A model generated the notes under the pieces. The model did no database searches and had not been told where the DNA came from. It saw only the letters and a list, made by a program, of their open reading frames with translations. The position numbers and the translations under genes are program-made. From positions 8,331 through 72,330 of the forward strand of contig JACAFD010000056.1 of the NCBI GenBank assembly GCA_013388555.1: a DNA stretch of 64,000 nucleotides. Direction: 5' to 3'. Within the stretch, counting starts at the first letter, position 1, and every line of letters starts with the position of its first letter. Positions 1 to 25,610 of the stretch are shown here, piece by piece. The DNA is from Nitrospirota bacterium (GTDB taxonomy: Bacteria; Nitrospirota; Nitrospiria; Nitrospirales; Nitrospiraceae).

Positions 1-273
1 AGAGGTCACGAATCGTATGGCGTCAACCTTCACCGAACCAAGTGAAGGGGCCCCGGTTTTCAGTTCATAGGTTTGAGACCGACCGGCGTCTTCAACTTTT
101 GTTAACGTACTGGTTCCAGAAAATGTCGCGCCCCAGGGGATTCCCTCGAATCCATTCGGATCGTTCTGCATTGGCACCGCGAAGACCGGGGCACCTTGAA
201 GGATAAACGAGAAGAAGGGGTAAAGGAAGAATAAGCGACAGATACAGTGGTCTGCGTGGAGTCGGCGAGGCAT
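1..273 (-). CDS. Exported hypothetical protein, C-terminal part cut by the window edge; paralog of the 275..808 gene
   Basis: Hand translation of the minus strand from ATG 273-271 gives MPRRLHADHCICRLFFLYPFFSFILQGAPVFAVPMQNDPNGFEGIPWGATFSGTSTLTKVEDAGRSQTYELKTGAPSLGSVKVDAIRFVTS and stays open to position 1. It has a hydrophobic N-terminus. The block AVPMQNDPNGF..W aligns with AVQMVNDPNGFQSLTW of the neighbouring ORF. It is absent from the ORF track because it is truncated. Confidence 0.5.
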   Translation of the reverse strand, partial: MPRRLHADHCICRLFFLYPFFSFILQGAPVFAVPMQNDPNGFEGIPWGATFSGTSTLTKVEDAGRSQTYELKTGAPSLGSVKVDAIRFVTS

Positions 274-274
274 G

Positions 275-808
275 CTACTCCGCGGAGTCAGTCATAAGGT
301 CGTTGAACCGAGGGGCCAGGGTACGGCTGTCGATAAAAATAAATCCACGCTCCGTGTTCGCGTGGTAGGTTACGCTAATTTCGGTTTCAGTCCCGCGCCA
401 AACATACTGTTGATTGAGACCCCGCATCATCTGTCCTGGGACGCGCTCAAGCGAACCAAACTGCTCCTCCAGATGGGTGAGAATTTGTTTGTGCCGATCG
501 TCACCCTGGTAGCGGATAGTCACACGTGCGAATTGTTCATCGACCGATAAGAATAGGAGGCTCTCAACCGGTATTCCGGCAAACAAAGGCTGACCATCCT
601 TCAATTTATATTCGCTCACATGCGGGCCTGCCTTCGCGACTTGTAAGTCCGGCCTCGTGGTGAGGGCTGTCCCCCACGTTAGGCTCTGAAATCCATTCGG
701 ATCGTTCACCATCTGCACCGCATGGGCAAGAAAGGGCTGGGTCATACAGAGGACTAGCCCCAGTAAGGCAAGGTATCGGCCTGCTTGATGGGTCTGCCGT
801 CCGATCAT
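275..808 (-). CDS. Exported hypothetical protein (signal-peptide-like N-terminus)
   Basis: 177-aa ORF. The N-terminal segment RYLALLGLVLCMTQPFLAHA-VQ looks like a Sec signal peptide. It is a tandem paralog of the truncated ORF at 1..273, with 1 nt between its stop and the next start. I recognise no family. Confidence 0.6.
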   Translation of the reverse strand: MIGRQTHQAGRYLALLGLVLCMTQPFLAHAVQMVNDPNGFQSLTWGTALTTRPDLQVAKAGPHVSEYKLKDGQPLFAGIPVESLLFLSVDEQFARVTIRYQGDDRHKQILTHLEEQFGSLERVPGQMMRGLNQQYVWRGTETEISVTYHANTERGFIFIDSRTLAPRFNDLMTDSAE

Positions 809-857: not shown

Positions 858-886
858 TTGAGAATGTCTTTGGGCATAGCTATAAT
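858..886 (+). promoter_or_regulatory. Sigma70-like promoter candidate for the phosphonate-type cluster
   Basis: TTGAGA (858-863), 17-nt spacer, perfect TATAAT (881-886). It lies about 43 nt upstream of ATG 929, in the divergent gap between the 275..808 gene and the decarboxylase gene. Confidence 0.4.
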
Positions 887-928
887 GCGCGGGTTTTTCC
901 ACAGGCGTTGTGGCGAGGAACCGACACA

Positions 929-1426
929 ATGATTGAAAGCGATGCGTTCGTTCAAGCGTTACAAGATATCGGGGTAGATTTCTTTACGGGGGTTCCCGAT
1001 TCGATCTTGGGCGGCATCATCGCCGAGTTGATGGAACGGCGTCTCTACACCCCGGCCGTTCGGGAAGATGAAGCGGTCGCCATGGCTGCCGGGGCCTATA
1101 TGTCCGGCAAGGTTCCCGCCGTGCTCATGCAGAATTCAGGGTTGGGTACGTCCCTCAACACCCTCATTTCGTTGAACATGATCTATTGCCAGCCCTGTAT
1201 TTTGATTGTGTCCTGGCGCGGTTATCAAGGCAAAGATGCGCCGGAGCATCTAGTGATGGGCGAGGTGATGCCGCAGTTTCTGGACACGGTGAAAATCCCG
1301 CATCGAACCCTATCGGAAAAGACGGCGATTGACGACCTGAAATGGCTGGCGGAGACGTTCATGAAGCAGCGCATTCCTGTCGCTCTCTTGATGACGAAGG
1401 GTGTTGTGAGAGGGTTGCACCCATGA
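929..1426 (+). CDS. TPP-dependent 2-oxoacid decarboxylase, alpha (pyrimidine-binding) subunit; phosphonopyruvate / sulfopyruvate decarboxylase family
   Basis: From the internal ATG at 929 the product is MIESDAFVQALQDIGVDFFTGVPDSILGG...REDEAVAMAAGAYMSGK..VLMQNSGLG. This is typical of the N-terminal half of Ppd and of ComD. Its TGA overlaps the next ATG (ATGA at 1423-1426). The longer track ORF from 785 adds a non-homologous leader. Confidence 0.8.
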   Translation: MIESDAFVQALQDIGVDFFTGVPDSILGGIIAELMERRLYTPAVREDEAVAMAAGAYMSGKVPAVLMQNSGLGTSLNTLISLNMIYCQPCILIVSWRGYQGKDAPEHLVMGEVMPQFLDTVKIPHRTLSEKTAIDDLKWLAETFMKQRIPVALLMTKGVVRGLHP

Positions 1427-2001
1427 GGCCGGAGCAAGGAACGATGCAAAGTCGGGCGATGGCCATGGCGGCATTGCTGGAACTACTTACCGATCAACCT
1501 GTGATTATCTGCAACGGGTTTCCTTCTCGTGAAGCGTACAAAATAGCCGATCGCCCGACCCATTTCTATATGATCGGGTCCATGGGAAATGCCTCGGCCA
1601 TTGCGTTAGGCGTTGCGCTTGCCAAGCCGAACAAGCAGGTGGTTGTGTTCGATGGGGACGGCAACGTATTAATGGGCATGGGAACATTAGCGACGGTGGG
1701 CGCGTTGAAGCCGAAAAATTTCATCCACGTGGTTTTCGACAATGAAGTGTACGGCACGACAGGGAATCAACCGACGATTTCCAATGTAGTCCCGCTTGAG
1801 AAGATGGCGAAAGCAGCTGGGTATGTAAATGTCGAACGGGTGCGGGAACGCGAAGACCTCATTTACGAGTTTACAGACATGCTGAAGAAAGATGGGCCGA
1901 GCATGTTGCTGGTGAAAATCAATGAGATGGTGGAAGATGTCGGGCGGGTGATGATTGATCCGCAGGATATTACGAAGCGGTTCATGAAAGCGATACAATA
2001 A
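1423..2001 (+). CDS. TPP-dependent 2-oxoacid decarboxylase, beta (diphosphate-binding) subunit; phosphonopyruvate / sulfopyruvate decarboxylase family
   Basis: Contains the TPP motif GDG-x(24-27)-N in FDGDGNVLMGMGTLATVGALKPKNFIHVVFDNEVYGTTG. The start ATG at 1423 is translationally coupled to the alpha subunit. The track ORF start at 1342 is in a different frame context and overlaps the alpha gene. Confidence 0.8.
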   Translation: MRPEQGTMQSRAMAMAALLELLTDQPVIICNGFPSREAYKIADRPTHFYMIGSMGNASAIALGVALAKPNKQVVVFDGDGNVLMGMGTLATVGALKPKNFIHVVFDNEVYGTTGNQPTISNVVPLEKMAKAAGYVNVERVREREDLIYEFTDMLKKDGPSMLLVKINEMVEDVGRVMIDPQDITKRFMKAIQ

Positions 2002-2007
2002 GCGATC

Positions 2008-2055
2008 GAGCCGCTAGGCAAGCCCTCGTTGGACGCGCGCAGTCGGAGCGGTCTC
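2008..2055. repeat. Small hairpin carrying the right-half core of the REP-like family (CCTCGTTGGACGCGCGCAGT)
   Basis: The arms gagccgct / agcggtctc flank ccctcgttggacgcgcgcagt. The same core recurs at 50016-50035, and in reverse orientation at about 9003-9022. The hairpin sits directly after the decarboxylase stop codon. Confidence 0.5.
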
Positions 2056-2095
2056 AATCACTTAATCGGGGCGAGAGGAAGAGAAGAGAGACGAG

Positions 2096-3178
2096 ATGGT
2101 CTTACTGAATCCGGGGCCGGTAAATGTGTCGGAGCGGGTGCGACAGGCTCTGTTGCGTCCGGATGTCTGCCACCGGGAATCGGAATTCACCGAGCTCTTG
2201 CATGGGATTCAGGCGAAGCTGTTAAAGCTCTTTGTGCCGGGGGCGGAAGCCAATTATGCCGCTGTGGTGTTGACCGGATCGGGAACTGCGGCGGTGGAGT
2301 CGGCTGTCATGTCGGCGCTCCCGCACGGCAAACGGATGCTGGTGCTCAACAATGGGGTCTACGGCGAGCGCATCTCCCAGATGGTCGGCCTGTATCGCTT
2401 GGGCGTGTCCGAGCTGAAATACGATTGGACGACGAGGCCGGATCCTGAACGGTTGCGGCTGGCGTTGCGACAACATCCGGAAGCGCACGCGGTCGCCATG
2501 GTCCATCATGAGACGACCACCGGACTCATCAATCCGGTCAAGGAGATAGCAGATGTCGTCGACAGCCAGAATCGGGTGTTTATTCTGGACGCGGTCAGTG
2601 CATTGGCAGGGGAGCTACTGGATATCGCCGGGTCTCACATTTATATGGTGGCTGGCACATCCGGAAAATGTATTCAGGGATTCCCGGGGCTGTCCTTCGT
2701 GCTCGTCCGGAAAGGGTTTCTCGAACGGATGCGTGCTTACCCCAGACGGTCTATCTATCTCCACATCACGCAGTATGTGGATGACCAGGGTCGCGGAACG
2801 ATTCCCTTCACGCCGGCCGTACAGGTCTATTATGCGTTCGACGAAGCGTTGAATGAACTTATGGAGGAAGGGGTTGCCAAACGGATTCAGCGGTATAAGA
2901 AAGTTGCGGCTCTCATTCGAGACCGCATGGCAAAAGTCGGCGTGAAGCCGCTTCTGACTCCGGACAAATATTCCAACACGATTACGGCCTTTCATCTTCC
3001 CGAGGGTGTCACGTATCGGTCGTTGCACGATCGATTAAAAGAAGCGGGCTATGTGATCTATGCGGGCCAGGGTCAACTCGAAAGCAAGATTTTCCGTGTT
3101 GCGAACATGGGCGCCCTCACGGAGACACAGTTTGTCGGGTTCCTCGACGCATTTGAACGGATTTGCGGTACAACATGA
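2096..3178 (+). CDS. Class V aminotransferase, 2-aminoethylphosphonate:pyruvate aminotransferase (PhnW/AepZ)-like
   Basis: 360 aa. The N-terminus is LLNPGPVNVSERV. The PLP-lysine context TSGKCIQGFPGLSFVLV matches my recollection of the PhnW motif (S-x-N/G-K-C-I-x-G-x-P-G). It is adjacent to the Ppd-like decarboxylase. Confidence 0.8.
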   Translation: MVLLNPGPVNVSERVRQALLRPDVCHRESEFTELLHGIQAKLLKLFVPGAEANYAAVVLTGSGTAAVESAVMSALPHGKRMLVLNNGVYGERISQMVGLYRLGVSELKYDWTTRPDPERLRLALRQHPEAHAVAMVHHETTTGLINPVKEIADVVDSQNRVFILDAVSALAGELLDIAGSHIYMVAGTSGKCIQGFPGLSFVLVRKGFLERMRAYPRRSIYLHITQYVDDQGRGTIPFTPAVQVYYAFDEALNELMEEGVAKRIQRYKKVAALIRDRMAKVGVKPLLTPDKYSNTITAFHLPEGVTYRSLHDRLKEAGYVIYAGQGQLESKIFRVANMGALTETQFVGFLDAFERICGTT

Positions 3179-3894
3179 AAGCCATCATCCTCGCAGCTGG
3201 CGTGGGGAAGCGTCTGTGGCAGGTTACCCAACATCGCCCGAAGTGCCTCATTGAGATCGGCGGGAGGACCCTCTTGCATCGCTACCTCACATCGCTTCGG
3301 AGCGTCGGTATTCACAGTGCTGACGTGGTTGTGGGCTACAGGCAGGAGATGATTCGCGAGGCTGTGGCAGGGGACTCCTGTGGTGTGCGTGTGAATTTCC
3401 TCGTTAACGAGCAGTTCCATCGCGGCAGCATTTCCTCGCTCTGGATCGCACGCGATGCGTTGGATGATCATGCGATCGTCATGGATGCAGATGTGCTCTT
3501 CCATCAAGAAATCCTTCGTCGCTTGGTACAATCTCCCTATGAGAATGCGTTGCTCATGGACGAGACGGTCAAGCAGACAGGGGAAGAGTGCATGGTTGTG
3601 GTCGAAGGAGGGCGCGTGATTGCGCTGACCAAGACGATGCCGTTGCAGTATGATTATGCCGGAGAAGGCGTGGGGTTTCTCAAGATTCGGCATGCCGATG
3701 CACCGTATGTCGTGGCGTCGCTCAGGACCCATGTGGATCATGAGGCCTGGCAGATGGAGTACGAAGATGCACTTTTAGGATTTTTTCGCGAAGTGAAAGT
3801 CGGGCATGAGAAAATTGGAGGACTCCCCTGGACCGAAATCGACTTTATAGAGGATGTGTCGAAAGCGGAACGGGATGTGTTGCCGAAACTGTAG
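3175..3894 (+). CDS. LicC/PntC-like nucleotidyl(cytidylyl)transferase
   Basis: MKAIILAAGVGKRL..HRPKCLIEIGGRTLL carries the canonical LAAGxGxRL...PK signature. The later block VMDADVLF resembles LicC. ATG 3175 overlaps the aminotransferase stop (ATGA). The track start at 3163 is an upstream in-frame alternative. Confidence 0.8.
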   Translation: MKAIILAAGVGKRLWQVTQHRPKCLIEIGGRTLLHRYLTSLRSVGIHSADVVVGYRQEMIREAVAGDSCGVRVNFLVNEQFHRGSISSLWIARDALDDHAIVMDADVLFHQEILRRLVQSPYENALLMDETVKQTGEECMVVVEGGRVIALTKTMPLQYDYAGEGVGFLKIRHADAPYVVASLRTHVDHEAWQMEYEDALLGFFREVKVGHEKIGGLPWTEIDFIEDVSKAERDVLPKL

Positions 3895-3978
3895 TTGCGT
3901 CGTTGGCGAAGCATCCCTCGTAAAGCACTGATATAGGGATGCAAGATACGGACGACGAGATGCACGAGACGAAATAAT

Positions 3979-5406
3979 ATGAGCGAGAGCCTCATCCAAA
4001 AGCGTGCCGATGTGCAAGGGCTGAGCACAGCGATTCTCTTGCCGTCGATGAGTCTGTTCGGCGAGCCTGCCGGATTGTATGCAGATGAGGTGGGTCCGCT
4101 GACCAGCGTTGTCGGCATCGGCCTTTTTCAGCGGGCAGTGTTGACCCTGCAGCGAGCCGGTATCCGACAACTCATGGTGTTGGTCGGGCCAGAGGAGAAT
4201 CAACTCAGACAGGCGTTGAGCAAAGGGCCGCGTGTGACGGTTCCCGTGCGCTGGATGCCGATTCGTGAGTTTCCACTCGATGATCCCCGCACGTGGGAAT
4301 CGCTCGCTGCCGAAGTGCGGGGTTTCTGTCTTCTGTCCAGCGTGCAGGCTGTATTTGCGAGCCGCTTGATTGAGAGCCTGCGCCAAGAGGTGCAGGAGGG
4401 GCAGGCTCTTGTTGTGGCACGGGCGGATAGCGGGCGGGATCGACGGCCACGCCGCTCGAATTTGCGTGTGAAGGTGCGGTCTGGCCGGCTTGTCTCGATC
4501 ACATCCAGGCAGGATGACTCTACACTGGTGGTCACAGACCTCGTGGTGCTCCCAGCCAGTTTCATGAGTGTTGTCGGTCAAGCCGGTGTGGAAGCCGGCA
4601 CGGTGCCGATTCGTCGATGGCTTGAACGTGCCGCGGTGGACGGGTACGTGCGGGTGCTGTCTACGGAAGCGAACCGGTCCCACTGGTATCAGGACGTGCG
4701 CGATGCTGCAGATGTGCAGGCTGCTGAGAAAAAGCTCTTCAATTCCCTCAAGGGCGAGTTCGAAGGTATTGTCGACCGGTTTTTCAATCGGAAGGTTTCT
4801 CGCTGGTTCACACGTATATTCCTTGCCATAGGTCTCTCGCCGAACGCCATTACGATCCTGGCGAGCACAGTTGGCCTGGTCGCAGCCGCCGGCTTTGGCG
4901 TCGGGACATACAATGCCGGCATCGTAGCCGCGCTGTTGTTTCAACTGGCAGCGATCATCGATTGCTGCGATGGCGAAGTGGCCAGACTTACGTTTACCGA
5001 ATCGCCCTTCGGAGCCTGGCTTGATATCGCGATGGACAATGTAGTGCACATGGCGATCTTTGCCGGCATTGCCGTGGGCTCATACATGCACCTGGCCGGG
5101 AGCGACGGGGCCTGGGTTCCGCTCGCCCTTGGTGCGGCAGCAGTTCTCGGGAACGGGCTCTCGTTCTGGCTCGTCACCCGCGCGAAAAAAATTAAGTCTG
5201 CGAGCGGATGGAAAACACCGGTGCAGGCTGCCTGGTCCGATTTCATGCTGAAAAATGTCGCGAGCCGAGACTTCTCCGTCATCGTGCTGATTTTTGCGGC
5301 GATCGGCAAGCTCGATTGGTTCCTCTGGATGGCCGCGATCGGCTCCGTGGTGTTCTCGATCATCATGCTCTGGGTGATCAGGCCGTCCGCCACTACCCGT
5401 GCTTAA
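3979..5406 (+). CDS. Fusion protein: degenerate nucleotidyltransferase-like N-domain plus CDP-alcohol phosphatidyltransferase membrane domain (IPCT/DIPPS-like architecture)
   Basis: 475 aa. The C-terminal half carries the CDP-alcohol motif D-G-x2-A-R-x8-G-x3-D-x3-D as DCCDGEVARLTFTESPFGAWLDIAMDN, plus several hydrophobic helices. The N-terminal roughly 250 aa has a Rossmann-like layout (AILLPS...IRQLMVLVGP) but no GxGxR loop. Confidence 0.8.
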   Translation: MSESLIQKRADVQGLSTAILLPSMSLFGEPAGLYADEVGPLTSVVGIGLFQRAVLTLQRAGIRQLMVLVGPEENQLRQALSKGPRVTVPVRWMPIREFPLDDPRTWESLAAEVRGFCLLSSVQAVFASRLIESLRQEVQEGQALVVARADSGRDRRPRRSNLRVKVRSGRLVSITSRQDDSTLVVTDLVVLPASFMSVVGQAGVEAGTVPIRRWLERAAVDGYVRVLSTEANRSHWYQDVRDAADVQAAEKKLFNSLKGEFEGIVDRFFNRKVSRWFTRIFLAIGLSPNAITILASTVGLVAAAGFGVGTYNAGIVAALLFQLAAIIDCCDGEVARLTFTESPFGAWLDIAMDNVVHMAIFAGIAVGSYMHLAGSDGAWVPLALGAAAVLGNGLSFWLVTRAKKIKSASGWKTPVQAAWSDFMLKNVASRDFSVIVLIFAAIGKLDWFLWMAAIGSVVFSIIMLWVIRPSATTRA

Positions 5407-6418
5407 GATAGTCCTACTTCTTGCCGGCCTCATCACTCTCGGGTTCCTCGTCTGGCATATCGGCCCCGGGCGAATCTACGATGCGGCATCGCAACTTGGG
5501 CCGGTCGCACTCCTCGTCCTGCTGATTCCCTCCACCATCATGTACGTCATCGATGCGTACGGTTGGAAAATTACGCTTGGCCCTTCGGCGAAGCATATTC
5601 CGTTCTGGCGTGTGCTCGCGATTAGGACAGCCGGTGAAGTGGTGAACATGACCACACCGACCGCCTACGTTGGGGGCGAACCGCTCAAGGCCTATCTGCT
5701 CACGAAACACCATGTGCCGATGGTGGAAGGGCTTGCCTCGGTCGTCATTGCAAAAACGACGATGACGATTGCCGAGGTGGTCTTCATCCTCCTGGGCATT
5801 TCGCTCGCGTTCTGGAGTGTCGGTGCCGCCGGCTCATCCGGGCAGAACGTTGCAGCTGCGCTGGTGAGTGTGGGCCTGCTGGTGCTCGTAACCGCCGCCC
5901 TCGTGTTTGTGCAGCAGCAAGGGCTCTTTACATCGCTGTTGAAATTTGCCCGGAAGATCGGGCTCAAGATTCATTACTTCGAAGTGCGTGAGAAGAAACT
6001 ACTGTCGCTGGATCGAACGATCTTGGATTTTTACCGAGACAACCGCCTGACCTTTTGTTCTTCCATCGGGTTGTTCTTTGCCGGCTGGATGGCGGAGGCG
6101 GTGGAGGTCTATGTCATCATCTATTTTCTCGGTGGCCCGGCTATGGCGGTCTCCGCCATCGCCATCAGCGCTCTGTCCGTCTTCATCAAGAGCGGCACCT
6201 TCTTCATCCCCGGCAGTCTTGGCGCTCAAGACGGAGGCAATATGCTCTTGTTGAGAGCCTTTGGGTATTCCGATGTCACCGGCATCACCTTCGCGTTGCT
6301 CCGGCGGTTCCGTGAGTTGGTTTGGATCGGGGTGGGGTTGCTGTGCTTAACGCTCGCCGGCGGGAGGGCCGCAGTAATTCAAGAAAGTCGCGCCGACGAC
6401 TTAGAAAATCGTTTCTGA
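5399..6418 (+). CDS. UPF0104 / LPG-synthase-TM (MprF flippase-like) integral membrane protein, copy 1 of 3
   Basis: 339 aa and polytopic. The conserved blocks GPVALLVLLIPS, AYGWK.TLGPSAK.IPFWRVLAIRTAGEVVN, GGEPLKAYLL and FIPGSLGAQD are typical of the family as I recall it. The GTG start overlaps the transferase stop by 8 nt. Confidence 0.8.
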   Translation: MLKIVLLLAGLITLGFLVWHIGPGRIYDAASQLGPVALLVLLIPSTIMYVIDAYGWKITLGPSAKHIPFWRVLAIRTAGEVVNMTTPTAYVGGEPLKAYLLTKHHVPMVEGLASVVIAKTTMTIAEVVFILLGISLAFWSVGAAGSSGQNVAAALVSVGLLVLVTAALVFVQQQGLFTSLLKFARKIGLKIHYFEVREKKLLSLDRTILDFYRDNRLTFCSSIGLFFAGWMAEAVEVYVIIYFLGGPAMAVSAIAISALSVFIKSGTFFIPGSLGAQDGGNMLLLRAFGYSDVTGITFALLRRFRELVWIGVGLLCLTLAGGRAAVIQESRADDLENRF

Positions 6419-6420
6419 CG

Positions 6421-6461
6421 TCAGTCATTGTTCTGGGTAATCAGACCGTCCGTCGTGACCC
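6421..6461 (+). other. Relic of the 3' end of the CDP-alcohol transferase gene, duplicated together with UPF0104 copy 2
   Basis: ttctgggtaatcagaccgtccgtcgtgacccatgctcaag aligns without gaps to ctctgggtgatcaggccgtccgccactacccgtgcttaag (5369-5408). By hand count that is 31 of 40 identical. The relic encodes FWVIRPSVVTH, versus LWVIRPSATTRA-stop in the parent gene. Confidence 0.7.
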
Positions 6462-7481
6462 ATGCTCAAGCTCGCTCTCATCTTTGCCGGCCTCTTCGCA
6501 ATCGCCCTCATCGTCTGGCAGATTGGCCCCGAGCGCATCTACGATGCGGCGGTGCAACTCGGGCCGGTTGCGTTGGTCGTCCTGCTGATTCCCTCCACGA
6601 TCATGTATGTCATTGAAGCATACGGATGGAAGGCCACGCTTGGCCCATCAGCCAAGGATATTCCATTCTGGCGCGTACTCGCGATCAAGACCGCCGGAGA
6701 AGTGGTGAATCTGACTACGCCGGCCGGTTACATCGGTGGTGAGCCGGTCAAAGCCTATCTGCTCACGAAACATCATGTGCCGATGGTGGAAGGGGTTGCC
6801 TCGGTCGTGATTGCGAAAACGACGAAGACGATCGCCGAAGTGCTCTTCATCCTCCTGGGTATTACGCTCGCATTCTGGAGGGTTGACAACGACGGCTCAT
6901 TGGGACAGACCGTCGTAATGGCACTGGTCAGTGTCGCAGTGCTGTTCTTCGTGACCGCGTCGTTGGTGTTCGCGCAGCGGCGAGGATTCTTTACATGGTT
7001 ATTGGAAATTACTCGAACAATCGGACTGAAGATCGCGTTTCTCGAATCGCGCGAGGAACAAATACGATCGCTGGATCGAATGATTTTGGACTACTACCGC
7101 CATAATCGTACGGCTGTGTACTCATCGACCGGACTGTTCTTTCTGAGTTGGATGTCGGAAGCATTAGAAGTGTACCTCATCATCTGGTATCTGGGGGGGC
7201 CTGCAACGGTCCTTTCCGCCATTTCTATCAACGCCCTCTCTGTTTTTATCAAAGGCGGAAGCTTTTTCATTCCGGGCAGCCTTGGCGCACAAGACGTCGG
7301 GAATTTTTTCTTGCTGAAAGACTTCGGTTATTCCGATGTCGCCAGCGTCACCTTCGCGCTGGTGAGACGATATCGAGAGCTGGTCTGGATCGTAATCGGG
7401 TTACTCTGCCTGGCGACGTTGCGTGGGCGGGCGGCCGCAATTCCGAGCGAGACTACTCATGGTTCAGGACATGACTCCTGA
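6462..7481 (+). CDS. UPF0104 / MprF flippase-like integral membrane protein, copy 2 of 3
   Basis: 339 aa and collinear with copies 1 and 3 over the full length. Identity is roughly two-thirds to three-quarters by eye. Confidence 0.8.
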   Translation: MLKLALIFAGLFAIALIVWQIGPERIYDAAVQLGPVALVVLLIPSTIMYVIEAYGWKATLGPSAKDIPFWRVLAIKTAGEVVNLTTPAGYIGGEPVKAYLLTKHHVPMVEGVASVVIAKTTKTIAEVLFILLGITLAFWRVDNDGSLGQTVVMALVSVAVLFFVTASLVFAQRRGFFTWLLEITRTIGLKIAFLESREEQIRSLDRMILDYYRHNRTAVYSSTGLFFLSWMSEALEVYLIIWYLGGPATVLSAISINALSVFIKGGSFFIPGSLGAQDVGNFFLLKDFGYSDVASVTFALVRRYRELVWIVIGLLCLATLRGRAAAIPSETTHGSGHDS

Positions 7482-7550
7482 CGACTGGATCGCAAGCTCG
7501 GCCGATTTGTCTGGATACCGGAGCACATATGTGTGGTATGCTCAAATTTT

Positions 7551-7587
7551 ATGCTCTGCGTGATGAGACCTTCCACCACGATCCACC
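7551..7587 (+). other. Second relic of the CDP-alcohol transferase 3' end, preceding UPF0104 copy 3
   Basis: atgctctgcgtgatgagaccttccaccacgatccaccatgcttaag aligns to atgctctgggtgatcaggccgtccgccactacccgtgcttaag (5366-5408) with one 3-nt indel. Confidence 0.65.
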
Positions 7588-8607
7588 ATGCTTAAGATTT
7601 CCCTCCTCTCTATCGGTCTCTTGACCCTTGGGATCATCGTCTGGCATGTCGGCCCAGGGCGTATCTACGACGTGACTGCGCAACTCGGGCCGGTGGCGCT
7701 CCTTCTCATGCTGATTCCGTCCGTCATCATGTACATCGTCGAAGCATACGGATGGAAAGTGACGCTTGGCCCCTCGGCGAAGCATATTCCATTCTGGCGT
7801 GTGCTTGCGATCCGGACTGCGGGGGAAGTCGTGAACATGACCACGCCGGCCGCTTACTCCGGGGGTGAGCCGCTCAAGGCTCATCTATTGAAGAATCGCA
7901 ACGTACCGATGGTAGACGGGGTCACCTCGGTCGTCATTGCGAAAACGACGATGACCGTTGCCGAAGTGCTGTTCATCCTCCTCGGCATCGGACTCGGTAT
8001 GTGGCTCTTAGGCGGGAACGATTCATCCGGCCAGACTCTGGCTGCGGCACTCTTCAGCGTAGGCCTGCTGGCCTTCGGGACTGCCGCGTTTGTCTTCGTG
8101 CAGCGGCAAGGACTCTTTACCTGGTCGTTGCAGTTTCTGCGGAAGGTCGGACTGAAGATTCATTATCTTGAAACCCGCGAGGAAAAATTGCGATCGCTGG
8201 ATCGCACGATCTTGGATTTCTACCGCCATCACCGTCCGGCTTTTTGCGCCTCCACCGGGTTGTTCTTTCTCGGGTGGATGGCAGAAGCGTTGGAAGTGTA
8301 TGTCATCATCTATTTTCTCGGTGGCCCTGCCATAGCCCTGTCCGCGATCTCCATCGGGGCCCTTTCCGTCTTCATCAAAGGAGGCACTTTCTTTATTCCT
8401 GGTAGCCTGGGCGCACAGGACGCGGGGAATTTGTTTTTGTTGAATGCTTTCGGTTACTCCGATGTCGCCGGCATCACCTTCGCGTTGCTGAGGCGATTTC
8501 GAGAGCTGACCTGGATCGGCATCGGGCTTCTCTGTCTCGCGCTGCTGCGCGGGCATATCGCGAAAATCCCTGAAATCCGCCTTCTCGACCCAGAAGTTGG
8601 GCCCTAA
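7588..8607 (+). CDS. UPF0104 / MprF flippase-like integral membrane protein, copy 3 of 3
   Basis: 339 aa, with the same conserved blocks as copies 1 and 2. About 72 percent identity to copy 1 over the first 60 residues by hand count. Confidence 0.8.
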   Translation: MLKISLLSIGLLTLGIIVWHVGPGRIYDVTAQLGPVALLLMLIPSVIMYIVEAYGWKVTLGPSAKHIPFWRVLAIRTAGEVVNMTTPAAYSGGEPLKAHLLKNRNVPMVDGVTSVVIAKTTMTVAEVLFILLGIGLGMWLLGGNDSSGQTLAAALFSVGLLAFGTAAFVFVQRQGLFTWSLQFLRKVGLKIHYLETREEKLRSLDRTILDFYRHHRPAFCASTGLFFLGWMAEALEVYVIIYFLGGPAIALSAISIGALSVFIKGGTFFIPGSLGAQDAGNLFLLNAFGYSDVAGITFALLRRFRELTWIGIGLLCLALLRGHIAKIPEIRLLDPEVGP

Positions 8608-9244: not shown

Positions 9245-11251
9245 ATGCCCGCATTAAAGCTGGTCCTGTGGGGCTTCCTTGCAATCCTCGGTGCTGTTGC
9301 GCTCGCCTTTGTTGTCGGTTTTGTCAATCCACAGGAAAAAGTGAATGGTCTTTGGCTCGTCGTTGCGGCGGCTTGTATTTATGTGCTGGCCTTTCGATTC
9401 TATGGCCGCTGGATTTCTCAGCGTGTGGTCGAACTGAACGATCAGCGTGTGACTCCGGCAGTGCGGTTGAATGACGGCGTCAATTTTCATCCCACTAATA
9501 AATATGTGTTGTTTGGCCATCACTTCGCGGCAATTGCCGGGGCAGGCCCGCTGCTTGGGCCGGTTCTGGCAGCGCAGTTCGGATTTCTTCCCGGATTTCT
9601 CTGGCTGGTGATCGGTGCAGTGTTGGCGGGCGCGGTGCAGGACTTCGTCATTCTGGTTGCGTCCATGCGGAGGAATGGCCGCTCACTTCCTGAAATTGCA
9701 CGCGATGAACTGGGCCTTGTTACCGGAACTGCGACGGCGGTGGCGGTGCTCTTTATCGTGGTGGTGGCTTTGGCAGGGCTGGGCTTTGCCGTTGTGAATG
9801 CGCTCTACTTCAATGCCTGGGGCACCTTCACGATTGCGATGACGATTCCTATCGGCCTCTTTATGGGCTTCTATCTTCAAAAGTTCCGGCCAGGCCAGGT
9901 GGCGGAAGTTTCCCTGCTCGGTGTGGTGATGTTGGTCGCAGCCGTAATCCTCGGGCGGGTGGTTGCTCAGTCTTCAATTGCCGGATGGTTTGAGTTCGAG
10001 CGAACGACGCTGGTCTGGGGACTGGCTTGCTACGGGTTTCTCGCGTCTGTCTTGCCGGGCTGGATGTTGCTAGTGCCACGTGGGTATCTCTCCACCTTTA
10101 TGAAGCTCGGCGTGGTGGCATTGCTGGGGGGGGGGGTGATTCTCATGGCGCCGACGATCGAGATGCCGCGCGTCACGATATTTGCCGGCGGAGGCGGACC
10201 GATCATTCCCGGGACGCTCTTTCCCTTCCTCTTCATCACCATTGCCTGTGGAGCTATCTCTGGTTTTCACTCGCTGGTCTCTTCTGGGACGACGCCGAAA
10301 ATGATCGAGCAGGAATCCCAGGCTACGGTCGGCTATGGGGCGATGTTGCTTGAAAGTTTTGTCGGTGTGATGGCGCTCATTGCCGCCTCGGTGTTGATTC
10401 CCGGTGATTATCTGGCGATCAATACTATGCTCTCGCCCGAAGCGCTGGCTGCGATGGGCTTTCCTGTCTCGCGGATTCAGGAACTCTCGCACCTCGTCGA
10501 GACGGATGTAGCTGGCAGGCCTGGAGGAGCTGTTTCGTTGGCGGTCGGCATGGCCTCTATTTTTTCCGCGCTCCCCGGTATGGCCGGCTTGATGGCTTAC
10601 TGGTATCAATTCGCGCTGGTGTTCGAGGCCCTGTTCATTCTGACAACGATCGATACTGGCACGCGTGTGGGGCGCTATCTCATTCAGGAGATGGGCGGGC
10701 GGTTGTACGCTCCATTACGCAGGATAAATTGGTGGCCCGGTGTAGCGGTGAGCAGCGTCCTGGTTGTGGGAGCCTGGAGTTACCTCATCGGCACCGGCAG
10801 CATCTCGACGCTCTGGCCGATGTTCGGCGCAGCGAATCAGTTGCTCGGCACCTTGGCGCTCTGCATCGGGACAACGGTGCTCATCAAAATGCGGAAGGCG
10901 CAATATCTCTGGATTACGGCAGCACCAATGCTGTTTGTCGGCAGCATTACCTTGATAGGGTCCTACGAGATGTTCGGCATGTTCGTGAGCAGGGCCTCGT
11001 CCCTTGCCGACGGCGGGCAGGCCTTTGCCCTGTATCTTGATGCGGGGTTGGTGGCGGTGGTGGCCTTGCTCGCGGTGATCGTCTTGGGCGATAGTATCAG
11101 GCAGTGGTACGGCTATCTTGTCTTGAAGCGGCCCTTCACCAGCAGCGAAGTGGTGGTGATGGCCGGTGGGAGTTCGCCTGGAAGATTGCGGACAACGATT
11201 CATTCTGATGAGGAGCAGCGGTTGCAGCTGCCAGGAGGAGGGTGCTGCTAG
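9245..11251 (+). CDS. cstA: Carbon starvation protein A (CstA family peptide/pyruvate transporter)
   Basis: 668 aa and polytopic. The N-terminal region RFYGRWISQRV...PTNKYVLFGHHFAAIAGAGPLLGPVLAAQFG is the hallmark CstA block. Confidence 0.9.
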   Translation: MPALKLVLWGFLAILGAVALAFVVGFVNPQEKVNGLWLVVAAACIYVLAFRFYGRWISQRVVELNDQRVTPAVRLNDGVNFHPTNKYVLFGHHFAAIAGAGPLLGPVLAAQFGFLPGFLWLVIGAVLAGAVQDFVILVASMRRNGRSLPEIARDELGLVTGTATAVAVLFIVVVALAGLGFAVVNALYFNAWGTFTIAMTIPIGLFMGFYLQKFRPGQVAEVSLLGVVMLVAAVILGRVVAQSSIAGWFEFERTTLVWGLACYGFLASVLPGWMLLVPRGYLSTFMKLGVVALLGGGVILMAPTIEMPRVTIFAGGGGPIIPGTLFPFLFITIACGAISGFHSLVSSGTTPKMIEQESQATVGYGAMLLESFVGVMALIAASVLIPGDYLAINTMLSPEALAAMGFPVSRIQELSHLVETDVAGRPGGAVSLAVGMASIFSALPGMAGLMAYWYQFALVFEALFILTTIDTGTRVGRYLIQEMGGRLYAPLRRINWWPGVAVSSVLVVGAWSYLIGTGSISTLWPMFGAANQLLGTLALCIGTTVLIKMRKAQYLWITAAPMLFVGSITLIGSYEMFGMFVSRASSLADGGQAFALYLDAGLVAVVALLAVIVLGDSIRQWYGYLVLKRPFTSSEVVVMAGGSSPGRLRTTIHSDEEQRLQLPGGGCC

Positions 11252-14648: not shown

Positions 14649-15569
14649 ATGGAGGTTCCTCTGCATATTCCAGTTATGGCAGAGGAAGTCCTATTTTGGC
14701 TCGTTCGAGAGGATGCTCGAATCTATCTTGACTGCACAGTGGGATACAGTGGGCATGCTGAAAAAATTCTTGAGGCAACACAGGGTTCTGACAGTAGGCT
14801 TATCGGGCTTGATCGCGATGCGGTGGCCATAGCAGCTAGTCGAGACAGGCTTGCCCGGTTCGGCGACCGCGTGGTCCTTCTGCATGGTCACTTTGTAGAT
14901 CTGAAGCAGCACCTTGCTGGCAGGGGTATTGGGCAGGTCGATGGAATCTTGTTTGATCTTGGAGTCTCGTCCGCGCAGTTGGATGAGCCTACTCGAGGGT
15001 TCAGCTTTCAGGGGGATAGTCCGTTGGACATGCGTATGGATCAATCGATGAGCGGGACTGCCGCCGACCTGATCAATCGATGGCCGGAGGCACAGTTGGC
15101 CGACACGATTTTTCAGTTCGGCGAAGAACGGTTTTCTCGGAGGATTGCTCGCGCCATTGTTCATGCGCGTGAACGCCGTCCGTTGGCAACGACGAAAGAG
15201 TTAGTCTCAGTAATTGAAGGGGCCGTTCCGGCAAGTTATCGGCATGGCCGTATCCACTGTGCCACGAGAACGTTCCAAGCCTTTCGCATTGCAGTGAATC
15301 AAGAGCTCGACTGTCTCGAACCGGCCTTGCGCGATGCGGTAGATGCGCTGTCTCCCGGCGGCCGTCTCTGTGTGATTTCATTCCATTCGCTCGAAGATCG
15401 GATTGTCAAACACACGTTTCGAGCGCTCTCCGGCAAGAACAATCCTGCACTGCTGGTGCTTACCAAGAAGCCGCAGGTCCCCACCAGGGAGGAGTCGGAC
15501 CGGAATCCTCGATCCCGCAGCGCCAAGTTGCGGGCTGCTCAACGGGTATCCAGGGAGGGTCAATTATGA
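14649..15569 (+). CDS. rsmH: 16S rRNA (cytosine1402-N4)-methyltransferase RsmH (MraW)
   Basis: 306 aa. HIPVMAEEVL...DCTVGYSGHAEKIL...GILFDLGVSSAQLD is the RsmH signature. It is the first gene of the dcw cluster. Confidence 0.95.
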   Translation: MEVPLHIPVMAEEVLFWLVREDARIYLDCTVGYSGHAEKILEATQGSDSRLIGLDRDAVAIAASRDRLARFGDRVVLLHGHFVDLKQHLAGRGIGQVDGILFDLGVSSAQLDEPTRGFSFQGDSPLDMRMDQSMSGTAADLINRWPEAQLADTIFQFGEERFSRRIARAIVHARERRPLATTKELVSVIEGAVPASYRHGRIHCATRTFQAFRIAVNQELDCLEPALRDAVDALSPGGRLCVISFHSLEDRIVKHTFRALSGKNNPALLVLTKKPQVPTREESDRNPRSRSAKLRAAQRVSREGQL

Positions 15570-15901
15570 AGGCACTGACGATTGTGGCCGGCGTGATGTT
15601 GGTCTTCGTCTTTGTGTGGGAACGTGTCGATGTCGTCCGGTTGGGTTATCAGATCGAGCGACTGAAGACCCAGAAAGTATTGCTGGAGCGGGAGCGGGAT
15701 CAATTGCAAGTCAAATTTTCCGCGCTGACGGCTCCGGAGCGAATCGCGAAGGTGGCGACTGAAAAATTCGGGCTCGTTCCGCCGCTGCAGGGCCAAGTGC
15801 TGATGGTGCGTGCGCCGGAAGAGGTTCCAAGTCCGCCGCTCCCGTCCGTGGAGCAAGTCCGTCTGGCGAGACATATCTCAGGCGGGAGGGTAGGCGAGTG
15901 A
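15566..15901 (+). CDS. ftsL: Cell division protein FtsL
   Basis: 111 aa, with a single N-terminal TM segment (LTIVAGVMLVFVFVW) followed by a coiled coil. ATGA overlap with rsmH. Canonical position between rsmH and ftsI. Confidence 0.8.
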   Translation: MKALTIVAGVMLVFVFVWERVDVVRLGYQIERLKTQKVLLERERDQLQVKFSALTAPERIAKVATEKFGLVPPLQGQVLMVRAPEEVPSPPLPSVEQVRLARHISGGRVGE

Positions 15902-17616
15902 CTGCCGGCCCTTCTCGCGGTCGCCGCTACGTGATGCTGCTTCTACTCCTCTGTGGGTTCGGCATCATTCTGTTTCGGCTGGTTACGCTTCAAGTGCTTC
16001 AAGCTGCAGAACTCACGGCTCGAGCTGATCGGCAACATCAAAAGACTGTGTCCTTCGAAGGGGCCAGAGGCATGGTGTCTGATCGCCACGGCAAAGTGCT
16101 TGCGATGAATGTGGAGGTGCCGTCCGTGTTCGGCGTACCGACGTCGTTGGAGAGTCCGTCGACGGTCGCCCGGACTCTTTCGCCGGTGCTCAATGTTCGA
16201 AGCGCTGAGCTTGAGAGAAAGCTCCGGCAAGACAAGAGCTTCGTGTGGTTGGCGCGAAAGGTCGAGCCTGAGCAAGGTCGCCGGCTGGAGCAATTGTCCT
16301 TGGATGGCATCGGTGTGGTGATGGAGGGAAGGCGGTTTTATCCCAAAGGTCCGTTGCTGGCTCATGTCCTCGGATTTTCCGGGATGGACGGCCAAGGGCT
16401 TGAGGGGCTCGAGCGCCGGTACGATTCGCATCTGCATGGAGAAAAACGCGTCACTGTGTTGCAGCGCGATGCATTAGGTCGAACGGTTTTTCCTAAAGGT
16501 TTGGCGGAACAAGTGCCTACGCCCGGACATTCTTTGACGCTGACCGTGGATGAGGTCATCCAATACATTGCAGAAAAAGAACTTGAGGAGGCTGTTACTC
16601 ATTCCCGCGCCAAGTCCGGGACTGTCATCGTCATGGAGCCACGCTCCGGAGCGATTCTTGCGCTCGCCATCAGCCCAAGATTCGATCCGAACGTTGTCGC
16701 TGCGTTGACACCCGATCGGTGGCGCAATCGCGCACTCACAGATACGTACGAGCCCGGGTCAACCATGAAAATAGTGGTTGCGGCCGCGGCACTTGAAGAA
16801 AAAGTGATGACGCCAGACTCTTTGGTCTTCGGTGAAAACGGCCGCATGGTGATTGCAAATACAACTATTCACGATCATGAAAAACAGGGATGGATGACGT
16901 TCTCTGAAGTGATCCAAAAATCCAGCAACATCGGCACTGCCAAAGCCGGAATGGCTCTGGGAGAGCAGCGGCTCTATCGCTACCTCCAAGCATTTGGATT
17001 CGGTCAACGCACTGAGATCGACTTGCCGGGTGAAGTAAGCGGACTTTTGAAGGGCCCAAAAGACTGGGGCCGCCGGTCACTGGCATCCATTTCGATGGGG
17101 CAGGAAGTCGGGGTGACACCTCTCCAGATGGTGGCGGCGGTGGCGACCCTCGCCAATGGGGGAGTGATGATGAAGCCCTATGTGGTGTCCGAGGTTCGGG
17201 ATGAGAAAGGCCGCTTGCTCAAAGAAGTTCTCCCGCAAGTAAAGCGGCGTGTCGTGTCACCGGACACGGCCAGGATGATGACGACGATGTTGGAAGGCGT
17301 CGTGACGAATGGGACCGGGGCGAAGGGGGCTATTCCTGGATTTCGCGTGGCAGGTAAAACCGGGACCGCGCAAAAGATCGATCCGCGAACCGGCGCCTAT
17401 TCCTCCACGCAGTTCGTCGGATCATTTGTCGGGTTTGTGCCGGCAGAAGCTCCGCGGTTGGCGATGATCGTGATTCTTGATGAACCCCAGGGCGAAGCTT
17501 GGGGTGGGACCGTGGCAGCACCCGTCTTTAGTCGGGTTGGGGAACAGGTGCTTAACTATCTCGGCGTGTCCAGGGAAGACACTGTGAAAATCGCACTGGC
17601 GATGAAGGACAACTAG
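15898..17616 (+). CDS. ftsI: Peptidoglycan D,D-transpeptidase FtsI (PBP3)
   Basis: 572 aa, with the STMK, SSN (KSSNIG) and KTGT (AGKTGTAQ) motifs. The GTG start overlaps the ftsL stop. Confidence 0.95.
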   Translation: MTAGPSRGRRYVMLLLLLCGFGIILFRLVTLQVLQAAELTARADRQHQKTVSFEGARGMVSDRHGKVLAMNVEVPSVFGVPTSLESPSTVARTLSPVLNVRSAELERKLRQDKSFVWLARKVEPEQGRRLEQLSLDGIGVVMEGRRFYPKGPLLAHVLGFSGMDGQGLEGLERRYDSHLHGEKRVTVLQRDALGRTVFPKGLAEQVPTPGHSLTLTVDEVIQYIAEKELEEAVTHSRAKSGTVIVMEPRSGAILALAISPRFDPNVVAALTPDRWRNRALTDTYEPGSTMKIVVAAAALEEKVMTPDSLVFGENGRMVIANTTIHDHEKQGWMTFSEVIQKSSNIGTAKAGMALGEQRLYRYLQAFGFGQRTEIDLPGEVSGLLKGPKDWGRRSLASISMGQEVGVTPLQMVAAVATLANGGVMMKPYVVSEVRDEKGRLLKEVLPQVKRRVVSPDTARMMTTMLEGVVTNGTGAKGAIPGFRVAGKTGTAQKIDPRTGAYSSTQFVGSFVGFVPAEAPRLAMIVILDEPQGEAWGGTVAAPVFSRVGEQVLNYLGVSREDTVKIALAMKDN

Positions 17617-17622
17617 GAGACC

Positions 17623-19140: not shown

Positions 19141-19181
19141 AAGGCCAAGCCACGGTCGGGATCGCACAGGATGAGGAATCG

Positions 19182-20636: not shown

Positions 20637-20702
20637 GGAGCGGAGCCAATTCCACGCAAAAGTCGGCCGGGCGGACAGGCTCATTCTTAAGGTAAAGGCG
20701 GC

Positions 20703-21779: not shown

Positions 21780-21783
21780 TGAC

Positions 21784-23193: not shown

Positions 23194-23225
23194 AGTGCAA
23201 GGCAAGGGAGGGGCAGCTCTGAGCA

Positions 23226-25543: not shown

Positions 25544-25610
25544 TGAGATTGGGCAACGCGGACAGGGTTCACAGTCGCGGTCCCTGGTCGGTGGAGTAAG
25601 GCGCGTGTCG

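Follow-up and report, generated by a model that had tools for sequence, protein, structure and literature searches.

A Nitrospirales operon with the predicted capacity to build and export a membrane molecule with an aminoethylphosphonate head group

The window analysed here, a stretch of 64 kb from a Nitrospira (Nitrospirota) chromosome on which all coordinates are counted unless another locus is named, carries an operon of eight genes, g1 to g8, that would build and export a lipid or another membrane-anchored molecule with a 2-aminoethylphosphonate (AEP) head group. We put the probability of this reading, drawn from sequence comparison, at roughly 60%. The genes encode a predicted phosphonopyruvate decarboxylase (Ppd) in two subunits (g1 and g2), a predicted AEP transaminase (AEPT; g3), a predicted CTP:AEP cytidylyltransferase of the PntC type (g4), a membrane CDP-alcohol phosphotransferase (g5) and three membrane proteins that resemble the flippase domain of MprF (g6 to g8). 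The operon is a Nitrospirales variant of a predicted, uncharacterised phosphonolipid cluster and not a categorically new system.

In the proposed route, the RhiEF-type decarboxylase g1/g2 would convert phosphonopyruvate into phosphonoacetaldehyde, which g3 would transaminate to AEP. The PntC-type enzyme g4 would then form CMP-AEP from CTP and AEP, and g5 would move the aminoethylphosphonyl group from CMP-AEP onto a lipid hydroxyl, most likely that of diacylglycerol, with release of CMP, before g6 to g8 move the product to the outer leaflet. Upstream of these steps, in relatives of the window, an adjacent fusion protein resembling phosphoenolpyruvate (PEP) mutase would supply phosphonopyruvate from PEP. 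The genes, their motifs, homologies and conserved order, the purifying selection on them and the expression of orthologs are observed, whereas the substrates and the acceptor named here are all predicted. A first-pass annotation, made from the letters of the window, had already proposed the five steps from phosphonopyruvate to a flipped product, and they are now supported by the score of g3 just under the TIGR03301 cut-off, the PntC match of g4, counterparts in Mycetohabitans and the adjacency of the fusion in relatives.

The cluster of which the operon is a variant corresponds to the 318 'Burkholderiales_CDP-OH' neighbourhoods, which are the Group 1 phosphonolipids of Yu et al. 2013 (Li & Horsman 2022, PMC8942020). 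Its seven-gene core consists of a fusion of PEP mutase (Ppm) with PntC, a Ppd, an AEPT, a 2-oxoglutarate (2OG) oxygenase, a second PntC and two genes of phospholipid biosynthesis; it is predicted to make a phosphonolipid, and its product has never been characterised (PMC8942020). In Mycetohabitans rhizoxinica, the core lies on pBRH01 (RBRH_RS14475-14505) and encodes a CDP-OH transferase, a 2OG oxygenase, an LPG-synthase-TM protein, PntC, aepX, aepY and AEPT. The two 'phospholipid' genes are therein a CDP-alcohol phosphatidyltransferase and an LPG-synthase-domain membrane protein, and aepX displays the canonical motif EDKQFPKTNS. All eight proteins of the window have a counterpart in this cluster, with 29-41% identity. 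Globally, the window shares with the Group 1 cluster a predicted Ppd, a stand-alone PntC-type enzyme, a CDP-alcohol transferase and a protein of the LPG_synthase_TM/HpnL type, to which a candidate AEP transaminase is added, and its Nitrospira relatives also share the fusion of Ppm with a nucleotidyltransferase (NTase).

The two nevertheless differ in several respects. The Group 1 cluster, as in Mycetohabitans, includes a 2OG-Fe(II) oxygenase, whereas none was found in the operon or in any mapped Nitrospira neighbourhood, so that the head group would be plain AEP and not 1-hydroxy-AEP. The Ppd of the Group 1 cluster, aepY, is unsplit, while that of the window is split into two subunits. Furthermore, g5 reaches 475 aa owing to an extra degenerate NTase domain of ~250 aa, compared with 231 aa for the Mycetohabitans transferase, and the flippase-like gene is triplicated in the window's clade, unlike in the Group 1 cluster. 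Finally, the PEP mutase of the Group 1 cluster carries the motif EDK-x5-NS, whereas the window's relatives carry EDN-x3-PKRCS and the window's closest relatives have PilZ genes in the corresponding slot; the cluster in the window includes no EDK-x5-NS PEP mutase. The first-pass annotation had held that the combination of a CDP-alcohol transferase with a trio of flippase-like proteins was uncharacterised. This stands as far as experiments are concerned, since our literature search found no experimentally demonstrated bacterial phosphonolipid route with a CDP-alcohol transferase, but the combination has already been described as a predicted core (PMC8942020).

Like RhiE/RhiF and ComD/ComE, the decarboxylase g1/g2 consists of one subunit with a PYR domain and one with a PP domain. 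This split and the thiamine motif of the second subunit had been recognised from the start, and Pfam TPP_enzyme_N (g1) and TPP_enzyme_C with GDG...DN (g2) agree with it. The split had also been seen as an anomaly, a view that has to be abandoned since RhiE/RhiF, whose structure has been solved (9IZ3; Nakamura 2024), is a proven Ppd of this split type. Indeed, g1 matches RhiE (PDB 9IZ3_A) with E = 8.6e-28 and g2 matches RhiF (PDB 9IZ3_B) with E = 4.4e-29, and g1 is 37% identical to the N-terminal half, and g2 40% identical to the C-terminal half, of Mycetohabitans aepY; through these matches, g1/g2 are homologs of the Ppd of the Group 1 cluster, with phosphonopyruvate as their predicted substrate.

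The hidden Markov models (HMMs) of NCBIfam place g1 and g2 between Ppd and ComDE. On the one hand, g1 scores 128.6 bits on the Ppd model TIGR03297 versus 109.8 bits on ComD; on the other hand, g2 scores 195.2 bits on ComE versus 179.2 bits on TIGR03297. The sum of g1 and g2 on TIGR03297 (307.8 bits) stays under the cut-off of 312.5, and both subunits also miss the ComDE cut-offs (147.95 for g1 on TIGR03845, 221.5 for g2 on TIGR03846). As the scores of RhiEF, a proven Ppd, are mixed between ComDE and Ppd in the same way, these models are uninformative on the substrate of g1/g2; they were dropped for placing the two proteins as Ppd or ComDE, and genomic context must therefore decide. Coenzyme M genes are not nearby.

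The two following genes had been described as a class V aminotransferase with a PhnW-like SGKCIQGFPG lysine context and a LicC/PntC-like NTase with an intact AAGVGKRL...PK loop, and both motifs are present, together with the families Aminotran_5 (g3) and NTP_transf_3 (g4). Among the families compared, g3 is closest to the AEP transaminases: it scores 341.9 bits on TIGR03301 (PhnW-AepZ), somewhat below the cut-off of 360.8 that the Mycetohabitans AEPT exceeds (370.5), and 177 bits on the best other family, a margin of 165 bits. It is 41.5% identical to the Mycetohabitans AEPT over its full length of 359 aa. The start of g4 overlaps the stop codon of g3. The best PDB match of g4 is the PntC Tde1415 (6PD1, E = 1.5e-14), with LicC (1JYK) and IPCT (2XME) behind, and it is 34% identical to the Mycetohabitans PntC, which makes it a candidate stand-alone cytidylyltransferase of the PntC type, as in the Group 1 cluster. 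In PntC of Tde1415, a glutamate contacts the amine of AEP; the equivalent of this residue (Glu196) is kept in the MEYE motif of g4, and the aromatic choline box of LicC is not shared.

These two genes also recall the Pnt pathway (Rice et al. 2019, PMC6697681; 6PD1/6PD2), in which AEP is converted into CMP-AEP by a LicC-like NTP_transf_3 enzyme, as predicted for g4. The NTase and the AEP transaminase are coupled in both cases, by fusion in Tde1415 and by the g3/g4 overlap in the window, and the Pnt pathway includes a second NTase fused to Ppm, as in the window's relatives. However, the characterised Pnt neighbourhoods encode LicD-type phosphotransferases or glycosyltransferases and have glycan targets, whereas the window encodes a CDP-alcohol-family transferase and a flippase-like protein.

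From its family and motifs, g5 is predicted to use CMP-AEP as donor of the AEP head group and a lipid alcohol as acceptor. It had been recognised as a membrane CDP-alcohol phosphatidyltransferase by DGEVAR-x8-G-x3-D-x3-D; the whole motif, D-x2-DG-x2-AR-x8-G-x3-D-x3-D, is complete in g5 and invariant in 16 relatives. The Pfam matches of both g5 and the LPG_synthase_TM proteins exceed the gathering scores, so that counterparts of both 'phospholipid' genes of the Group 1 cluster are present. The N-terminal ~250 aa of g5 form a cytosolic domain with a degenerate NTase fold, homologous to the IPCT domain of IPCT/DIPPS and AF2299. These two proteins are also its best PDB matches (AF2299, 4O6M; IPCT/DIPPS, 4MND) and display the same layout, with the CDP-alcohol phosphotransferase transmembrane (TM) domain placed after a cytosolic domain of NTase fold. 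Unlike in IPCT/DIPPS, the NTase signature of this domain is lost in g5, where LLPSMSLFG replaces the G-x-G-x-R loop, and the cytidylyltransferase activity is assigned to the separate g4. The donor of IPCT/DIPPS is CDP-inositol, whereas that of g5 would be CMP-AEP, and g5 scores 98 bits on NF041135 (IPCT/DIPPS), far below the cut-off of 580. Its TM domain is 31% identical to the Mycetohabitans CDP-OH transferase. Distant relatives of g5 (~28% identity; P0170, P0180) retain an NTase loop, AAGxGxR...KPL, in their N-terminal domain. The g5 protein of Nitrospira, with the separate NTase g4 immediately upstream, looks like a once-bifunctional protein that has lost one function.

The proteins g6 to g8 are, as initially proposed, three UPF0104 (MprF flippase-like) paralogs: they score 107-110 bits on LPG_synthase_TM (formerly UPF0104; cut-off 33) and are 68-74% identical to each other. 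They consist of 339 aa and of the TM domain alone. Indeed, the C-terminal aminoacyl-phosphatidylglycerol synthase domain of MprF has no counterpart in them, and their scores on MprF NF033480 do not exceed 15.8 bits, versus a cut-off of 600. They are 29-30% identical to the Mycetohabitans LPG-synthase-TM protein (29% for g6, which occupies the equivalent position). The trio had been considered a feature of the system. However, one LPG_synthase_TM gene follows g5 in ~70 genomes, and the copy number varies from 1 to 3 in the window's closest clade, the only one with two or three copies, and is 1 elsewhere; therefore, the trio is a recent tandem expansion in the window's clade. On TIGR03476 (HpnL), g6 to g8 score 140-156 bits (156 for g6), below the cut-off of 195.65. 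On the same model, the Mycetohabitans LPG-synthase-TM protein (L167:7080-8081) reaches 329.8 bits, and the Mycetohabitans cluster is followed by dxs and a gene for an MMPL transporter. This hints at a possible connection of both 'HpnL' proteins and phosphonate head groups with lipids of the hopanoid or isoprenoid kind.

The same chemistry from AEP to CMP-AEP could also serve an acceptor other than diacylglycerol, such as a soluble polyol (DIPP-like), a polyprenyl- or lipid-A-linked glycan or a hopanoid polyol, g6 to g8 being then involved in export. We consider this rather unlikely, although several points favour it: IPCT/DIPPS and AF2299 are the best NCBIfam and PDB relatives of g5, whose N-terminal domain is IPCT-like, the membrane partner in Mycetohabitans is a full HpnL member in a cluster followed by dxs and the MMPL transporter, and most Pnt clusters decorate glycans (Rice 2019, PMC6697681). 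However, no glycosyltransferase, LicD, inositol-phosphate synthase or hopanoid gene was found in or next to the operon at any mapped Nitrospira locus. Furthermore, MprF-type TM domains are known to flip glycerolipids with modified head groups. Lastly, the homologous core of Burkholderia has been assigned to phospholipid biosynthesis (PMC8942020).

As for the supply of phosphonopyruvate to the predicted AEP-headed lipid, the window lacks any PEP mutase gene, as the first-pass annotation had pointed out: the six-frame translation of the 64 kb contains no EDK-x5-NS motif, and a tblastn search of the window with a related PEP-mutase-like protein matched only the NTase g4. This lack had been regarded as a trait of the system, but it reflects the clade of the window and the place where the window was cut, since relatives have an adjacent PEP-mutase-like gene. 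Indeed, 17 loci of the Nitrospira group and Nitrospira moscoviensis carry, 0.5-4 kb upstream of g1 and in divergent orientation, a gene encoding a 559-aa fusion of an N-terminal PEP_mutase domain (PF13714) with a C-terminal NTP_transf_3 domain. The fusion adjoins the operon in about a quarter of the related genomes, as well as in one unrelated bacterium (L082), and is absent from the syntenic slot in roughly half of the Nitrospira loci with enough flank. One or two copies of EXP, a conserved protein whose paralogs have ~170-185 aa across loci, are found between the fusion and g1. In N. moscoviensis, one strand carries the flippase gene, g5, g4, g3, g2 and g1, and the other carries EXP, EXP, the fusion, PilZ, TetR, MFP and RND.

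In 49 Nitrospira loci, EXP lies between the operon and either the Ppm-like fusion or PilZ genes; versions of the cluster outside Nitrospira lack it. The window carries such a pair on the minus strand, with a signal-peptide-like N-terminus, in agreement with the divergently transcribed exported proteins initially noticed upstream. As the window edge cuts the second EXP gene, next to which N. moscoviensis has the fusion, the fusion slot lies ~0.3 kb outside the window. In the loci L086 and L001, whose g5 proteins are 97% and 90% identical to that of the window, four PilZ genes come directly after the EXP pair and are followed by TetR and, in L001, by MFP and RND. The fusion is thus not at the locus in the window's clade and, therefore, the gene supplying phosphonopyruvate would be elsewhere in the genome or would have been replaced.

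The series RND, MFP, TetR and one to four tandem PilZ genes is a conserved synteny that flanks the cluster in L001, L086, L084 and ~35 other loci. The upstream junction appears rearrangement-prone, since lineages differ in how many PilZ genes they have and in whether the fusion is present. L162 and L134 have the fusion at a distance of 4.6-9.7 kb from g1, and L114 has it among other neighbours; since the fusion can thus be uncoupled from the operon, it may plausibly lie at another site in genomes of the window's clade. A metagenome scan with the fusion found it near g1/g2 (0.5-10 kb) in diverse other lineages and returned no contig from the window's clade. The fusion of L114 was itself considered as a relocated copy of the window's clade and rejected, since it displays only ~72% DNA identity to L001 and hence belongs to another lineage. 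In other Nitrospirales families, sequence inspection revealed QueF-like and DegT-like genes upstream of the operon, and not Ppm.

In all >90 fusion sequences, the loop EDN-x3-PKRCS takes the place of EDK-x5-NS, which corresponds to the replacement of K116 by N and of N122 by C. Every sequence examined shows this loop, even at 51% identity, among them those of L082 and of 77 metagenome contigs. The closest structures to the N-terminal domain are the Ppm 5UNC (E = 1e-84; 51% identity), then the PPH 2DUA (46% identity to PPH), then the Mytilus mutase, whose ligands of Mg2+ and substrate are all retained (W44, S46, G47, D58, D85, D87, E114, K120, S123, R159 and H190). The fusion thus has these ligands in common with PEP mutase and PPH (PDB 5UNC, 1M1B, 2DUA) and differs at K116 and N122. 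It scores 274.1 bits on TIGR02320 (PEP mutase; cut-off 319.55) and 274.3 bits on TIGR02321 (PPH), i.e. below both cut-offs. As EDK-x5-NS is lacking and the score is below the cut-off, its mutase activity is unproven. The subfamily forms a single clade in a small neighbour-joining tree, within the Ppm/PPH radiation and beside PPH. C-C lyases of the same superfamily have a loop EDQ..KRCGH; the loop of the fusion resembles it and is a hybrid of mutase and lyase features.

However, the order of the Ppm and NTase domains is the same in the fusion and in Mycetohabitans aepX, with 35% identity over the full length. Because of this order, of the constant company of Ppd, AEPT and PntC in several lineages and of the kept catalytic ligands, the fusion is presumably a working mutase that makes phosphonopyruvate from PEP. 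The EDK-x5-NS filter was applied to PF13714 hits by Rice et al. 2019 (PMC6697681), who discarded 22 fused sequences devoid of the motif, and by Li & Horsman 2022 (PMC8942020); as a result, the fusion subfamily and Nitrospira were left out of published phosphonate inventories. In one lineage, with 65-69% identity between its fusion and that of Nitrospira (query L019), a second CDP-alcohol-transferase-like gene (29-38% identity to g5) is found ~3-5 kb downstream of the fusion (L159:13059, L162:14831, L132:7974), and g1/g2 are 5-10 kb off in the two loci showing them.

All g5 homologs at 83-97% identity come from Nitrospira/Nitrospirota assemblies. The neighbourhood survey, in which one genome per species was scanned with an alignment of diverse g5 relatives, comprises 80 loci, and the order g1-g2-g3-g4-g5-flippase is kept in ~75 Nitrospirales genomes. 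The operon core is under strong purifying selection. Indeed, within the window's clade, which lacks an adjacent fusion, the ratio of nonsynonymous to synonymous substitution rates (dN/dS) is 0.03-0.07 for g1-g3 overall (0.03-0.06 for g1, 0.03-0.04 for g2), 0.06-0.08 for g4, 0.08-0.11 for g5 and 0.10-0.27 for g6. Furthermore, 32-45% of the positions of g1-g4 are invariant across 54 genomes, and not one residue discriminates the 26 of them with an adjacent fusion from the 28 without; therefore, g1-g4 have not been retooled where the adjacent fusion is missing. In the proteome and transcriptome of N. moscoviensis (Lawson et al. 2021, Table S1), in which locus tags were assigned to operon genes by size and order, the fusion and the products of four operon genes (NITMOv2_0598 and 0602-0605) were detected as peptides, and all five transcripts exceed the median. 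The pathway proteins are thus made in a growing nitrite oxidiser, an evidence that concerns orthologs in an organism other than that of the window.

Several points weigh against an AEP-headed lipid. No PEP mutase is found in the 64-kb window, nor in the 10 kb upstream of the operon in L001 and L086, and the fusion of relatives is devoid of EDK-x5-NS and scores below the PEP_mutase equivalog cut-off (274 vs 319.6 bits). The HMM scores do not separate a split Ppd from ComDE, and the nearest solved relatives of g5, AF2299 and DIPPS, use soluble acceptors. The literature searched reports no phosphonolipid for any Nitrospira and describes no characterised one for the Burkholderia clusters; a search for Nitrospira with phosphonate, pepM, Ppd or phosphonolipid also found no paper on this cluster.

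The lack of PEP mutase at or near the locus would be explained if the operon, at least in the fusion-less clade, made something other than a phosphonate: 3-phosphohydroxypyruvate could be turned into phosphoethanolamine, then CDP-ethanolamine and a lipid similar to phosphatidylethanolamine, or sulfopyruvate could be turned into taurine. The slightly higher score of g2 on ComE than on Ppd, the annotation of g1/g2 of N. moscoviensis as 'comDE' and the lyase-like loop of the relatives' mutase-like enzyme (N for Q/K, plus KRC) are consistent with this, and PntC/LicC-type enzymes accept phosphate esters. Sulfonates, however, cannot be nucleotidylated. Moreover, the proven Ppd RhiEF is as mixed in its scores as g1 and g2, which both remain under the ComD/ComE cut-offs, and g3 sides with AEP transaminases by its 165 bits. 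Finally, no discriminating substitution in g1-g4 separates genomes with and without an adjacent Ppm-like gene, and the same gene set accompanies the Ppm-like fusion in several phyla-level lineages. A non-phosphonate product is therefore unlikely.

It is still less probable that the operon of the window's clade is a partly orphaned remnant which, after loss of the Ppm-like gene, would install scavenged AEP, g1-g3 having become dispensable or repurposed. The empty fusion slot of L001 and L086, where PilZ genes abut EXP, would fit such a remnant, and AEP is a common environmental phosphonate. However, among the operon genes, constraint within this clade is strongest on g1-g3, no gene near the operon could be recognised as encoding a phosphonate transporter, and the uncoupling of the fusion from the cluster in L114 makes relocation plausible. 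A catabolic role (PhnW plus PPH) was rejected, since a phosphonatase is lacking and AEP breakdown offers no role for a decarboxylase.

As initially described, g1 to g8 are eight co-directional open reading frames (ORFs), all on the plus strand from 929 to 8607 in the ORF listing (Table 1). They are separated, from g1 to g8, by +17 nt, +94 nt, an overlap of 4 or 16 nt, +84 nt, an overlap of 8 nt, +43 nt and +106 nt. Their description as mostly overlapping or tightly spaced thus holds only in part.

Table 1. Features of the window, PEP-mutase-like fusions of related loci and N. moscoviensis orthologs with their expression (RPKM, reads per kilobase per million mapped reads)
Feature	Position or locus tag	Strand	Description	Basis
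EXP, second paralog	1..273	-	First 91 codons, cut by window edge	Aligns with second EXP of L086 and N. moscoviensis
EXP	275..808	-	Conserved 177-aa protein, signal-peptide-like N-terminus; system membership uncertain	No Pfam/NCBIfam family match
Promoter	858..886	+	Sigma-70-type, TTGAGA-17-TATAAT	11/12 consensus positions
g1	929..1426	+	Alpha (PYR-domain) subunit of split TPP-dependent 2-oxoacid decarboxylase; predicted phosphonopyruvate decarboxylase	Pfam TPP_enzyme_N
g2	1444..2001	+	Beta (PP-domain) subunit of the same decarboxylase	Pfam TPP_enzyme_C, 78 bits; GDG...DN thiamine motif
g3	2096..3178	+	Class V aminotransferase, predicted AEP transaminase (AepZ/AEPT type)	Pfam Aminotran_5; SGKCIQGFPG
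g4	3175..3894 (alternative TTG start 3163)	+	PntC-like nucleotidyltransferase, predicted CTP:AEP cytidylyltransferase	Pfam NTP_transf_3; AAGVGKRL...RPK
g5	3979..5406	+	Membrane CDP-alcohol phosphotransferase, 475 aa	Pfam CDP-OH_P_transf, residues 287-432
g6	5399..6418	+	LPG_synthase_TM/HpnL-like (MprF flippase-domain-like) membrane protein, paralog 1	Pfam LPG_synthase_TM 107 bits
g7	6462..7481	+	LPG_synthase_TM paralog 2, clade-specific tandem duplicate	68% identity to g6
g8	7588..8607	+	LPG_synthase_TM paralog 3	Pfam 109.8 bits; 74% identity to g6
Fusion (relatives)	L042:4318-6030 (-), L084:10001-11680 (+), L082:12738-14414 (-) and L087-L166		PEP-mutase-like/NTase fusion	Invariant loop [IL]EDN[VIL][YF]PKRCSF
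'pepM' (N. moscoviensis)	NITMOv2_0598		Fusion	31 peptides; RPKM 558
'comE' (N. moscoviensis)	NITMOv2_0602			16 peptides; RPKM 203
'phnW' (N. moscoviensis)	NITMOv2_0603		g3 ortholog	25 peptides; RPKM 263
NTase (N. moscoviensis)	NITMOv2_0604			18 peptides; RPKM 178
CDP-OH transferase (N. moscoviensis)	NITMOv2_0605			8 peptides; RPKM 457

The near-consensus promoter noticed ahead of g1 matches 11 of the 12 consensus positions. Both its -35 and -10 hexamers are kept across diverged Nitrospira lineages while the rest of the intergenic region has diverged, which argues for a real promoter, and a ribosome-binding site, GAGGA, is found at ~914-918, ~10 nt 5' of the g1 ATG (929). An alignment of 16 related loci also revealed a box, ACGCTA[CA]CATG, conserved upstream of the hexamers in the divergent EXP-g1 intergenic region (~817-828 in the window), which may serve as an operator or as the EXP promoter. 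An Rfam scan of the window found no riboswitch or RNA gene, and a tandem-repeat search of the window found nothing relevant. Downstream, cstA (9245-11251) lies between the operon and the dcw division/cell-wall cluster (14649-27002, plus strand; mraW, ftsI, murE, murF, mraY, murD, ftsW/murG, murC), which starts ~6 kb beyond the operon. Owing to these neighbours, the operon is considered as part of the core chromosome and not of an island. A tblastn search of plasmids with g5 gave no match.

No product has ever been assigned to the commonest predicted bacterial phosphonolipid cluster, that of Burkholderia (PMC8942020). The Nitrospira version, which is conserved in the genus and expressed in N. 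moscoviensis, provides a testable system in a cultivable and globally important nitrifier. If the phosphonolipid reading is true, the strong selection that maintains the operon in the window's clade without the fusion at the locus would point to a relocated copy of the fusion or to a source of phosphonopyruvate independent of PEP mutase. If the fusion is active, environmental estimates of phosphonate biosynthetic potential that used the EDK-x5-NS filter (PMC6697681, PMC8942020) would be too low, and the positions held to define a mutase, K116 and N122, would need revision. It is conceivable, although we regard it as doubtful at present, that Nitrospirales make an unrecognised phosphonolipid whose C-P bond comes from a Cys-loop subfamily of PEP mutases (EDN-x3-PKRCS) missed by the filters of pepM surveys, and that the phosphonate production of nitrifiers in soil, freshwater and wastewater has consequently gone uncounted. 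Phosphonolipids are known from a few organisms, and a C-P head group is resistant to phosphatases and phospholipases. Such a head group could therefore matter to these bacteria in biofilms or where phosphorus is scarce.

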